The notes beneath the pieces were generated by a model. The model did not search any database. It worked only from the letters and a program-made list of their open reading frames with translations, and was not told the DNA's origin. Positions 27,894-32,604 of a stretch of 64,000 nt of DNA are shown in pieces (position 1 is the stretch's first letter; each line of letters begins with the position of its first letter). Position numbers and translations under genes: made by a program. Source of the stretch: an uncultured Clostridia bacterium (GTDB lineage: Bacteria; Bacillota; Clostridia; Oscillospirales; Acutalibacteraceae); contig CANQEU010000004.1 of NCBI GenBank assembly GCA_947595635.1, positions 186-64,185 of the forward strand. The letters run 5' to 3'.

Positions 27894-28679
27894 GTGCAGT
27901 ACAAAAAGGTTGAAATATGCGGCGTAAACACAAGCAAAATCAAGGTTCTTAAAGAGGACGAAAAGAGAGCGCTGCTCAAAATCATAAGCAGCGGCTCAAA
28001 GTCCGAACGCGCAAAGGCAAGGGAGGAAATGATAAACGGTAACCTGCGCCTTGTCCTCAGCGTAATTCAGCGCTTTACAAACCGCGGGGAAAATCTTGAC
28101 GATTTATTTCAGGTCGGCTGCATTGGTCTTATAAAGGCTATCGACAATTTTAACTGCGAGCTTGATGTAAGATTCAGCACATATGCAGTACCCATGATAA
28201 TAGGCGAGGTCAGGCGCTATTTGAGAGATCACAATTTTATTAGGGTCAGCCGAAGCATTCGTGACACTGCATACAGGGCAATGCAGGTTAAGGAACAGCT
28301 TACAAACAAAAACAACAGAGAGCCTACTGTCGAGGAGATAGCAAAGGAGCTTGACACAAGCAAGGAAAACGTCGTGCTTGCGCTTGAAGCCGTTGTTGAG
28401 CCGGTATCGCTTTATGAGCCGGTATTCTCGGACGGCAGCGACACCATATGCGTTATGGATCAAATCGGCGACAACAACGACGACAACAACTGGCTTGACG
28501 AAATCTCTATAAAGCAGGCGCTCAACGATTTGTCCGAGAGAGAAAAAACAATAATAGGTTTAAGATTTTTCAAGGGAAAAACTCAGATGGAGGTCGCCTC
28601 CGAAATAGGAATATCGCAGGCTCAGGTCAGCCGCATTGAAAAGGGCGCTCTTGCGAGGATAAAAAACTCGACCGCCTGA
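27894..28679 (+). CDS. sigG: Forespore sigma factor SigG
   Basis: KVEICGVNTSKIKVL N-terminus typical of SigG; DLFQVGCIGLIKAIDNF; GKTQMEVASEIGISQAQVSR; GTG start. Confidence 0.93.
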   Translation: MQYKKVEICGVNTSKIKVLKEDEKRALLKIISSGSKSERAKAREEMINGNLRLVLSVIQRFTNRGENLDDLFQVGCIGLIKAIDNFNCELDVRFSTYAVPMIIGEVRRYLRDHNFIRVSRSIRDTAYRAMQVKEQLTNKNNREPTVEEIAKELDTSKENVVLALEAVVEPVSLYEPVFSDGSDTICVMDQIGDNNDDNNWLDEISIKQALNDLSEREKTIIGLRFFKGKTQMEVASEIGISQAQVSRIEKGALARIKNSTA

Positions 28680-28704
28680 AAAAAGTAACAGATAAAGGCA
28701 TAAA

Positions 28705-28734
28705 AACGGCTGACAATTGATTTTGTCAGCCGTT
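28705..28734 (+). terminator. Hairpin after sigG
   Basis: aacggctgacaa/ttgtcagccgtt 12-bp stem. Confidence 0.6.
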
Positions 28735-28767
28735 AAAGTTTCTCAAAAAGTATTTTTGCCTATGTTG

Positions 28768-29202
28768 CCTTGAACCGCAGTCAGCGCCGCTGCGCAGCGG
28801 GACTGCTGCTTAAGTGTTTATTTTTGCAGGAGAAAGTGGGGTTACGGGGGAGCGACAGCTCCCCCGTTTAAAATCCAACTTAAAAGCAGCGGCGTTATCG
28901 GCGCAAGCCGGTCTGCCTGCGGTCATAGAAATATAAAACAAAGTGTTTTTGCTTTGAAAAATAAGATTTATAATTTCACTTTGCCCTCGTGCCGGGCAGG
29001 TTTCTTTAATAAAAAACTTTTTTGATTTTTATTTTCTTAAAATCATTTTTTATTAGCAATAAAACACTATAATTCGCTTGCAATCTTTGGCAGACTTTGG
29101 GGTTGCAAGGGGCTTGCCCCCTTGCATAATAAATAAATATTAAAGCAGCAGCGTTACCGGCGCAAGTCGGTAACGCTGCGGTCATAGTCTGCCTGCGGTC
29201 AA
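28768..29202 (-). repeat. Mosaic palindromic repeat locus R2 (minus-strand order B, C, spacer, B, D, half A)
   Basis: Reverse-complement copies of the modules at 57.4-58.2 and 63.7-64.0 kb. Confidence 0.9.
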
Positions 29203-29216
29203 CGCTGCAAAAGAAT

Positions 29217-29405
29217 CTATTTTTTCTTGCCAAGAATTACAACAATGGCTACAACGATTGCGGACGCGGCAAGTATGCCGACTATCAGCAGCACATTCGT
29301 TTCATCGCCCGATTGCACTAACCCTCCTGCGGCGGAAGCAGATACGGCAGCCGCAAAGGAAGAAAACAGAGCAAGGATAGAAAACATTAAAGCTTTAAAC
29401 TTCAT
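29217..29405 (-). CDS. 62-aa protein: signal peptide plus sortase-like C-terminal sorting signal
   Basis: GGAGG RBS; MKFK-hydrophobic-ASA signal; VQSGD motif, TM helix, KKK tail. Confidence 0.75.
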   Translation of the reverse strand: MKFKALMFSILALFSSFAAAVSASAAGGLVQSGDETNVLLIVGILAASAIVVAIVVILGKKK

Positions 29406-29508
29406 TTTTATACCTCCGTATGTTCTTGTTATATATATTTTAATTCATATTTTAAGCGCCGGATTTTAAACTCCGGCAATTACATATTTACACAAATTTT
29501 AAGGCTGA

Positions 29509-29537
29509 TTGACAAAATACAACAAATTAATTAGAAT
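29509..29537 (+). promoter_or_regulatory. SigA promoter of mntP
   Basis: TTGACA-17-TAGAAT, leaving a ~100-nt leader. Confidence 0.7.
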
Positions 29538-29642
29538 AGTATTCGCTCATTAATATTACACGTTCGCATACGGCAAATAGCTTAATGCAACGGCTGTAAT
29601 CGCCGCACGCTCATGCAAGCGGCGCTGCGGCTTTAAGAGAGG

Positions 29643-30221
29643 ATGATATTCTTTTTGGGTATTTTTGAACTGCTGTTGATTGCAACCGGCTTATCAATGG
29701 ACGCATTCGCCGTTTCAATATGCAAGGGACTCGCCGTTAAAAGCATAAAGGCCGGCGACGCCTTAAAGGCAGGCGTATGGTTCGGCGGTTTTCAGGCGCT
29801 AATGCCTGCAATCGGCTTCTTCTGCGGCTATTGGTTTAAGAATTACATAACATCGTTCGACCATTGGATAGCCTTTGCCCTGCTTTTTCTGCTCGGCGCA
29901 AGAATGATAAAAGAGGCGCTTTGCGAAAAGGACGAGAACGCAGGCGCTTCAATGGATATAAAAAATATGCTGCTGCTTTCAATAGCGACAAGCATAGACG
30001 CGCTGGCAGTCGGAATAACCTTTGCGTTTCTCAATGTAAATATATTTTACGCCTGCGCCATTATCGGAATTACCACCTTTTTATTCTCCGCCGCCGGAGT
30101 AAAGATAGGCAGTATTTTCGGGGCCCGCTTTAAAACAGGAGCCGAAATTGCCGGAGGGGTAATTCTTATATTGATAGGCGTAAAAATCCTTCTTGAGCAC
30201 CTTGGGATAATAAGCCTTTAA
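29643..30221 (+). CDS. mntP: Manganese efflux pump MntP family
   Basis: LSMDAFAVSICKG, FGGFQALMP, DHWIAF, ATSIDALAVG. Confidence 0.9.
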   Translation: MIFFLGIFELLLIATGLSMDAFAVSICKGLAVKSIKAGDALKAGVWFGGFQALMPAIGFFCGYWFKNYITSFDHWIAFALLFLLGARMIKEALCEKDENAGASMDIKNMLLLSIATSIDALAVGITFAFLNVNIFYACAIIGITTFLFSAAGVKIGSIFGARFKTGAEIAGGVILILIGVKILLEHLGIISL

Positions 30222-31680: not shown

Positions 31681-31755
31681 TAATGTATTGATAAAATTCA
31701 AGCAGTAACGGCTTCTTTGCTGTTTTCAGCGCAGAGAAACGAAAGGATTGATAAT

Positions 31756-32604
31756 ATGAGATTTTGCAGCAGATGCGGCTCTCAGGTGAGAGAGGGCGAG
31801 CTGTTCTGTTCAAACTGCGGCTCACGTCTTTCAGAACCAAAAAACGAATATAACGACGGCTTTAACAGCGGCAGTGAAAACACCGAGGATTATTCTGTAT
31901 TTAAAAATATCGGCGAACCGCAAAGGGACGACAATAACATATACAGTCATTCGCACAGCGGCGCAAGCACCGAACGCGTCGGATATGGCGCTGCAAGGGA
32001 CGATTTTGACGAAAAATCACAGAGCATCGGCGACAAGCCGTACATCAAAAAAGTATGCCCCAACTGCAACCAGCCGCTTGAGCGCAATCAACGTGTATGC
32101 CCCTACTGCGGATATGACGTTACAAGATATAACGACGACTATGATTCGCCTATAGAAGGCGAATTTCAGCCGGCTGACCGCAGAAATATAAATTCAGGCG
32201 ATAATAAAAGCGGCAAAAGCAACACTCCGCTTATAATAGGAATAGTAACCGCTGTAGTAATCGTAATTGCGGCTGTTATCGTTTTCTTCGTATTTATGGG
32301 AAACAATAATAAAACGGCGACATCGCAGACGGATACGCCAACGGAAACACAACAGCAATCTGAGGCGGTAACCGAAACAGAGGCTCAGACAGAGGAATAC
32401 ATAACCGAGCCCGAATATGTAAGCACAGAGCCGCCCACGGAGGCGCCGACCGAAGCGCCCACAGAACCGCCAACCGAAGCGCCGACTGAAGAACCCACAG
32501 AACCACCGACCGAAGCGCCGACTGAAGAACCGGAAGAACAGCCGACAGAAGCAAGCTCAGCCGTAACACTTGAAAACAACCAATCGAGCGATTTAGCGAT
32601 TTAA
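31756..32604 (+). CDS. Zinc-ribbon membrane protein with extracellular TEAP/TEPP repeats
   Basis: CSRCG..CSNCG and CPNC..CPYCG ribbons, one TM helix, repeated TE(A/P/E)P; ATG 31756 after GAAAGGA. Confidence 0.8.
   Translation: MRFCSRCGSQVREGELFCSNCGSRLSEPKNEYNDGFNSGSENTEDYSVFKNIGEPQRDDNNIYSHSHSGASTERVGYGAARDDFDEKSQSIGDKPYIKKVCPNCNQPLERNQRVCPYCGYDVTRYNDDYDSPIEGEFQPADRRNINSGDNKSGKSNTPLIIGIVTAVVIVIAAVIVFFVFMGNNNKTATSQTDTPTETQQQSEAVTETEAQTEEYITEPEYVSTEPPTEAPTEAPTEPPTEAPTEEPTEPPTEAPTEEPEEQPTEASSAVTLENNQSSDLAI

Follow-up and report, generated by a model that had tools for sequence, protein, structure and literature searches.

The window, that is, the whole stretch of 64,000 nucleotides that was analysed, carries on its minus strand a very short gene, here called the mini-gene, divergent from mntP, whose product (the mini-protein) consists almost only of a leader and of a C-terminal segment resembling a sortase sorting signal. 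The features of the gene and of its product are the following:

29217..29405, minus strand: coding sequence of the mini-protein, 62 aa plus stop codon, translation MKFKALMFSILALFSSFAAAVSASAAGGLVQSGDETNVLLIVGILAASAIVVAIVVILGKKK; orthologues in 7 of 7 same-genus genomes
29413..29417, minus strand: GGAGG ribosome-binding site, 7 nt 5' of the ATG
29428..29455, minus strand: candidate promoter TTAAAA-16 nt-TATAAC, weak, proposed by reading the sequence and absent from the consensus-scan listing
29130..29179, minus strand: intrinsic-terminator-like hairpin with U-rich tail, arms 29148-29159 and 29168-29179
29331..29405, minus strand: Sec-type signal peptide, residues 1-25, with a predicted SPase I site ASA/A (by eye; here and below the slash marks the cut)
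29310..29330, minus strand: 'cargo' AGGLVQS, residues 26-32, the least constrained segment
29295..29309, minus strand: GDETN, residues 33-37, putative post-cleavage part of the sorting signal, with G33, D34, T36 and N37 invariant
29229..29294, minus strand: hydrophobic membrane-spanning segment, residues 38-59, from the sequence and the orthologue alignment
29220..29228, minus strand: basic cytoplasmic tail KKK, residues 60-62; orthologues end KKNNK, KKSNK or MKNNKK

The open reading frame translates into exactly the residues quoted in a sequence-only reading of this DNA that preceded the present analysis, and the strong GGAGG site described there is present and unsequestered. The consensus promoter scan listed no minus-strand promoter upstream of the mini-gene; the divergent region that separates it from mntP, 237 nt long (29406-29642), contains a near-consensus mntP promoter (TTGACA-17-TAGAAT, 29509-29537) and a short hairpin at about 29457-29476. 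An Rfam search over 28600-29800 gave nothing above the gathering score and no Mn riboswitch before mntP (E<=1). The terminator hairpin 3' of the stop codon is a perfect 12-bp stem of -30.7 kcal/mol (z = -3.99; 0 of 200 shuffled sequences equally stable) and lies inside one copy of a dispersed repeat. In particular, a 46-nt element is present in two copies, 85% identical, in the intergenic region downstream of the mini-gene (28883-28928 and 29142-29187), and a 12-mer at its core, CTGCGGTCATAG, is found 36 times across the genome of 1.97 Mb against about 0.2 copies expected by chance; the copies of the core are often paired, about 260-320 nt apart, and near contig ends. The element is a dispersed REP/MITE-like repeat, one copy of which supplies the terminator hairpin of the mini-gene. 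Nine sequencing runs containing part of the stretch (X1-X9) are gut-metagenome DNA, with no RNA run listed.

The N-terminus of the mini-protein shows a basic n-region (MKFK), a hydrophobic core of 17 residues and the ASA/A site, judged by eye with the -3/-1 rule, and A25, which occupies the -1 position of the leader, is invariant in 8 of 8 orthologues. The segment left between leader and GDETN overlaps the sortase-like motif LVQS/G itself (residues 29-33), and the peptide across the candidate scissile site between S and G is AGGLVQSGDETN. At the extreme C-terminus, the hydrophobic segment and the basic tail are kept in 8 of 8 orthologues. Compared with the LPXTG pentapeptide, LVQSG agrees at L and G and carries V for P and S for T, and it also lacks the Pro of the (S/P)PxTG pattern of C. 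difficile SrtB-type substrates. The NCBIfam profile of the LPXTG anchor, TIGR01167, gives 13.7 bits against a cut-off of 15.9, with residues 33-62 aligned to profile positions 6-32 and the LPxT part unaligned. Pfam reported for the mini-protein only sub-threshold matches to MFS_1 and Cation_ATPase_C, identities which were rejected as the effect of hydrophobic composition, and did not report PF00746 at E<=10.

A six-frame search of 60 relatives recovered the small ORF at full length from each of the seven genomes that belong to the same genus (E 1e-12 to 3e-8, identity 46-52%, open frames of 70-89 aa), corresponding to orthologues of 66-68 aa beside the 62 aa of the window protein. All 8 orthologues have a GGAGG-type site at similar spacing and most of them a TGnTATAAT -10 element and a terminator hairpin; in five (L004-L008) the -10 element, TGATATAAT, is clearer than that of the window gene. 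The positions invariant among the 8 orthologues are A25, G33, D34, T36, N37, V38, L40, I41, I44, L45, A47, G59 and K61, while the motifs in the other orthologues read IPTGD, TPTGD, TTTGD, AATGD, TATGD and VAAGD, so that P1, the residue before the candidate cut, is Thr in five, Ser in one (that of the window) and Ala in two (VAAGD). The sequence-only reading had made the conservation of VQSGD a touchstone: G33 and D34 are indeed invariant in the 8 orthologues, V, Q and S vary, and VQSGD as such is not conserved. The spacers diverge between species (AGGLVQS, AGSVVAA, ADSGKAIIPT, ANAEKAVTPT and others) and are 7-10 aa long within the genus and 4-29 aa across the wider family described below.

The rates of substitution, calculated by the Nei-Gojobori method, reflect the same distribution of constraint. 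The dN/dS of the whole gene, taken from pairs with unsaturated dS, is 0.08-0.26; the block that begins with GDxTN and takes in the helix and the tail has 0.01-0.14, and the spacer 0.16-0.31, reaching at least 1 in the most distant pairs. The mini-gene is therefore a real gene under purifying selection, in which the sorting-signal part is the most constrained and the 'cargo' the least.

A survey of the host's sorting signals took in every six-frame ORF of the genome (72 contigs, 1.97 Mb) and looked for a C-terminal motif followed by a helix and a basic tail. Two kinds were found. Nine proteins carry Pro-containing signals followed by G, A or S ([LI]P[LFS][TSA]G[GA] and YPHTGS), and include pilin-like proteins adjoining class C sortases; ten carry signals without Pro and with an acidic residue, of xVxTG[DE] type, namely SVNTGD, KVATGD (four times, two of them at contig edges), AVSTGD, VVNTGD, TTTTGD, NINTGE and NVYTGE, in which P1 is Thr in 10 of 10 and P3 is Val in 8 of 10. 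A comparison with the other sorting signals of the genome had been proposed by the sequence-only reading, and it places LVQSGD with the Pro-less TGD kind (V at P3, G-D, ETN, helix and KKK), Ser at P1 excepted. In six other genomes of the genus, nine large proteins of 578-808 aa end in GKVATGDS[TAR][NS]..., a helix and a basic tail, a signal close to the xxTGD[DE]TNV of the mini orthologues (of 12 regions fetched for this set, three without the intended ORF were dropped). Thr thus occupies P1 in 19 of 19 large substrates, 10 from the genome itself and nine from the genus, against Ser in the mini-protein. The tail of the mini-protein and the sorting signal of the genus's large surface proteins are paralogues, and GDETN, which has its counterpart in the TGDxTN of these proteins, is the generic flavour of the genus rather than a property of the mini-protein. 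As a statement of homology, then, the sorting-signal reading stands; as a statement of cleavage it is weakened by Ser at P1, by the absence of Pro and by the score below the TIGR01167 cut-off.

The strong conservation of the helix had also suggested a special function of the C-peptide, a proposal weakened by the large substrates, whose tails are about equally conserved: between the same pairs of genomes, the tails of the mini-protein are identical at 28-31 of 32 positions and those of orthologous large substrates at 22-28 of 29, with 14 of 30 in a second large family. Since orthologous large-substrate tails are similarly conserved, conservation of the tail alone is not evidence of a special C-peptide role.

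Beyond the genus, a profile of the 8 orthologues was compared with 1.84 billion (1.84e9) representative proteins at E<=1e-3, giving 29 matches, of which 21 are by inspection mini forms of 59-121 aa and the other eight are large proteins or leaderless pieces. All but two of the mini forms are at most 72 aa long, and two have doubtful start calls; they share a leader, a spacer of 4-29 residues, an xPxTGD or xVxTGD motif, a helix and a basic tail. At P1, 20 of the 21 have Thr and one has Ser; at P3, 12 have Pro (LPPTGD, SPLTGD, SPFTGD, FPPTGD, NPPTGD and others) and six have Val; several members carry SPLTG, SPFTG or SPNTG. When TIGR01167 was applied to 19 members of this wider family, nine scored above the cut-off and one exactly at it, and part of the class would receive the label 'LPXTG cell wall anchor domain-containing protein' from automatic annotation; the name LPXTG anchor protein is in fact attached automatically to one Atlas cluster, whose proteins are 70 aa long (score 0.84, to be taken only as a lead). 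In most members the linker amounts to the recognition motif plus 0-8 residues and is the fastest-evolving part. By its sequence and build, the mini-protein belongs to this widespread class of proteins of 59-121 aa, and the possibility that its homologues are all much longer, named by the sequence-only reading as one that would speak against it, does not hold, as both same-genus and wider-family homologues are equally short.

In the 301 genomes of the family, mini forms were verified by sequence in 10 (G000, G003, G006, G010, G181, G092, G153, G207, G111 and G143); the same searches also matched the C-termini of many large proteins. Short-frame matches in G324, G106, G264, G101, G275, G072 and G218 were left out of this count, the one in G324 being rejected as a mini form because it is a multi-pass membrane protein. 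The exact sequence of the mini-protein is absent from a collection of 15 billion proteins, in which the nine family clusters looked up are all without a name, and a word-indexed protein search at near lengths returned seven candidates, none of which was scored.

Sortase domains are matched eight times in the genome. Five of these matches belong to class C; one, at 102 bits for a cut-off of 165, is class-D-like; and two class-B-like genes, which score 149.3 and 148.2 bits for a cut-off of 153.75, encode proteins of 282 and 754 aa. Among solved structures, the 282-aa enzyme (L016:1474-2319, minus strand) is nearest to SrtB of C. perfringens and C. difficile (E 2e-25 to 1.5e-23). In three genomes of the same family, substrates ending in TGDxTN or MGDDTN lie directly beside class-B sortase genes: in G254 a 322-aa protein ending PKMGDDTN stands between two srtB genes, in G129 a 223-aa protein ending QPKTGDYTN precedes srtB and in G101 srtB is followed by a 336-aa protein ending FPQTGDTTN. 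Because of this adjacency and of the likeness to the substrates of C. difficile SrtB, a class-B sortase is most likely the enzyme that would handle TGDxTN signals. The mini-gene itself has no adjacent sortase gene in any of the 15 loci inspected (eight in the genus and seven outside). The 14 other genomes with a mini-gene all have a class-B sortase, but so do 288 of the 301 genomes of the family, which makes the co-occurrence uninformative. Small ORFs adjoining sortase genes in G247 and G080 were rejected on inspection, since they matched by their signal peptide only and have no sorting signal. A complex prediction of the 282-aa class-B-like sortase with residues 26-62 gave a score of 0.00 twice, in a run whose controls were not folded.

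Some observations on these sortases and substrates stand apart. The 754-aa protein (G000:C9, L015:721-2982, minus strand, outside the window) has its class-B sortase domain at residues 275-491 (148 bits against 153.75) and a C-terminal sequence that looks Ig-like by eye, and is much larger than usual sortases; class-B sortase matches occur in similarly large open frames of 746-756 aa in G003-G006. The 322-aa secreted protein of G254 (L075, G254:C31:66300-69000) ends in GPKMGDDTN, a helix and KKKDK, with Met, not Thr, before Gly.

As regards the neighbourhood, the mini-gene is divergent from mntP in six of the eight genus genomes, beside genes for TSCPD-domain and PHP-domain proteins. The seven loci outside the genus all have different neighbours, which include starch synthase with RsgI, polysaccharide synthesis genes, aspartate kinase, a Ser/Thr kinase, GluRS, SpoIVB with an M18 peptidase and an SNF symporter. 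In five genomes (G002, G007, G010, G181 and G092) mntP is found on a different contig from the mini-gene. A functional link with MntP was therefore rejected, and the adjacency is best read as local synteny, because the neighbours differ outside the genus and mntP is also kept apart from the mini-gene. At 31717-32604, on its plus strand, the window encodes a zinc-ribbon protein that combines one membrane helix with a long repeat tail rich in Pro, Thr and Glu (PTEAPTE...); in G002 and G007 the mini-gene has a related zinc-ribbon gene directly downstream of it.

The known system closest to these signals is that of C. difficile SrtB, whose substrates, as given in the available text of PMC4155245, carry SPKTGDETQ and SPKTGDSTN and undergo cleavage between T and G, which the two native residues that follow G enhance at least two-fold. 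Like the targets CD630_32460 and CD630_33920 described in that text, the mini-protein combines a signal peptide, a motif close to T/G-D-[ES]-T-[NQ] before a helix, and a basic tail; unlike them, it has no passenger (seven residues against hundreds) and carries Ser for Thr at P1. Val in place of Pro at P3 is found also in the disputed NVQTG of C. difficile CbpA, and in the assays covered by the same text the Pro-less NVQTG peptide was left uncut by C. difficile SrtB in vitro (PMC4155245). Modelling, as far as it is set out in the available part of PMC5118464, ties a non-Pro residue to a less favourable geometry, and the available part of PMC5569036 records two C. difficile proteins bearing SPxTG motifs as unprocessed in vivo.

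With the LPXTG anchor proteins (TIGR01167, PF00746) the mini-protein shares the tripartite architecture; it differs from them in scoring below the TIGR01167 cut-off and in having no PF00746 match. NF053819 of NCBIfam (EF2685/EF0750, a 105-position model) is a curated family whose sortase-dependent surface proteins are unusually small; it resembles the mini class in this respect and differs in keeping a passenger of some tens of residues; members of the wider family match it at 10.7-22.5 bits against a cut-off of 47, through the sorting signal only, and the search of NF053819 with the window protein gave no match. TIGR04200 (PExPT-CTERM 'target of XrtJ', a 57-position model) describes a protein of an exosortase system whose length, like that of the mini-protein, roughly equals a leader and a sorting signal together, and which is a dedicated mini-target of XrtJ; it belongs to another enzyme family and has another motif, and its match of 11.4 bits against a cut-off of 40 makes it an analogy only.

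Two further systems concern small membrane peptides of sortase pathways. In Streptococcus gordonii, the C-peptide that sortase leaves in the membrane after processing of adhesins acts on a histidine kinase, according to the available part of PMC11502775, and represents a precedent for selection on a sorting signal and not on its cargo; there the peptide derives from large adhesins and its kinase partner is identified, whereas the mini-gene has no linked kinase. SafA, described in the available part of PMC9282373 as a small single-pass membrane modulator of an actinobacterial sortase, is like the mini-protein small, single-pass and directed at the sortase pathway, and unlike it has an FPW motif and no sorting signal, is encoded directly downstream of srtA and is actinobacterial. 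GspA is glycosylated before anchoring, as reported in the available part of PMC6381275; a parallel here would need a glycosylation site. In the literature searched, of which the coverage is thin for subscription journals, no description of cargo-less sorting-signal mini-proteins was found. Compared with these systems, the case of the window is a leader-bearing clostridial variant, without sortase linkage, that uses the general Pro-less TGD signal of its host.

The reading here preferred, to which about an even chance is assigned, is that the mini-protein is a cargo-less substrate of the class-B sortase pathway. The pre-protein would be made up of a Sec/SPase-I signal peptide (residues 1-25), a linker of seven residues and a sorting signal of clostridial class-B type, and of nothing else. 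After export, the leader would be removed between A25 and A26, and the resulting type-I membrane peptide of 37 residues would enter the class-B sortase pathway, where the enzyme would cut between S32 and G33; the heptapeptide AGGLVQS would be passed to a peptidoglycan precursor or released, and a C-peptide of 30 residues (GDETN, helix and KKK) would remain in the membrane. The selected function most likely lies in the engagement of the pathway, since the 'cargo' hardly exceeds the recognition motif and is under the weakest constraint of all segments; it may consist in occupation or titration of the sortase, in capping of wall acceptors by a short peptide or in the C-peptide itself. A function in passenger display is unlikely, because a linker that nearly coincides with the recognition motif and evolves fastest leaves nothing to display.

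A serious rival is suggested by the features that speak against cleavage, and assumes a micro-protein independent of sortase, an uncleaved single-pass type-I peptide of 37 residues with an ectodomain of 12 residues, whose sorting-signal look would be ancestry and whose scissile site would have decayed. It is serious because P1 has drifted (Ser in the window and Ala in two of the eight orthologues, as compared with Thr in the large substrates), because the motif has no Pro and because C. difficile offers, in the sources available, cases both of the uncut NVQTG peptide and of motif-bearing proteins unprocessed in vivo; the score below the TIGR01167 cut-off points the same way, as does the (near) invariance of G-D-[DE]-T-N and of the helix while P4-P1 drift. 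In fact, the drift among the mini orthologues looks like relaxed selection on the scissile position. This alternative finds it hard to explain the exact retention of G-D-x-T-N as in the sortase substrates of the genus, and it has against it the wider family, with Thr at P1 in 20 of 21 and the canonical Pro in 12 of 21. Moreover, the PKMGDDTN substrate, which has Met at P1, stands between two class-B sortase genes, so Thr at this position is not necessarily required for processing; on balance, an uncleaved peptide appears somewhat unlikely. The precursor of a diffusible peptide, in which SPase I and a hydrolytic sortase would release a species-specific signal peptide of 7-10 residues, would agree with an excised segment that is short and diverges fast between species, a pattern typical of Gram-positive peptide pheromones. 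It is improbable in that no receptor, transporter or regulator gene is linked, the neighbours differ between genera, the segment is largely the recognition motif itself and sortases prefer transpeptidation to hydrolysis.

Two hydrophobic segments and a very basic C-terminus would also suit a two-helix hairpin membrane protein with an uncleaved leader, for instance holin-like or type-I-toxin-like, which the invariant -1 Ala of AxA, the strong and unsequestered ribosome-binding site and the homology of the tail to sorting signals render very improbable; the neighbours, moreover, are housekeeping genes (sigma factor, MntP, TSCPD, PHP) with no prophage context. The least credible explanation is a decaying remnant of a large surface-protein gene without its passenger, or an ORF arisen by chance, for which only the resemblance of the tail to the C-termini of large proteins can be adduced. 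The sequence-only reading had listed a remnant that lost its passenger domain among its options, and this is excluded, together with the chance ORF, because orthologues of the same length are conserved in 7 of 7 genus genomes and dN/dS is well below 1; in addition, synteny is conserved, each orthologue has its own ribosome-binding site, most have a promoter element and a terminator, and 21 of the 29 database matches are equally small.

A further-reaching form of the cargo-less substrate reading, in which such mini-proteins would serve the sortase pathway of gut clostridia as a dedicated input, either regulatory or structural, is unlikely and is offered as a speculation. In this form, the mini-proteins may be competitive substrates of slow turnover that tune the free sortase and the lipid-II acceptor available for large adhesins, or alternatively the membrane C-peptide may report the flux through the pathway; the replacement of Thr at P1 by Ser or Ala would then have produced, in the lineage of the window, a poorly cleaved decoy that binds the sortase.

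Sortase biology is framed around the display of passenger domains. The mini family, which is under purifying selection and extends through many genera of gut clostridia of Ruminococcaceae/Oscillospiraceae type, has essentially no passenger, and a conserved family without passenger, in which selection acts on the signal itself, implies that the sorting signal has a use of its own; this may be decoration of the wall by a short ribosomal peptide, control of sortase capacity or formation of a membrane C-peptide. The mini-proteins also provide natural substrates, the smallest ones, on which the uncharacterised class-B sortases of these uncultured gut bacteria can be tested, and the Pro-less xVxTGD signal documented here matches the disputed NVQTG of C. 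difficile CbpA.

Outside the window, an open frame of 598 codons (G000:C47:12540-14333, minus strand) contains an internal sorting signal. Its order is a leader, an Ig-like domain, a Pro/Thr linker, APKTGDSTN, a helix, KFRKR and, directly after it, a second leader-like segment (AAKFLSLFLCVALLCAIVPFGALA/ADGD), after which about 370 residues follow without a C-terminal anchor. This polypeptide might give two exported products, with sorting signal and leader placed back to back, and a similar junction of a sorting signal and a leader is present in G002 (L055).
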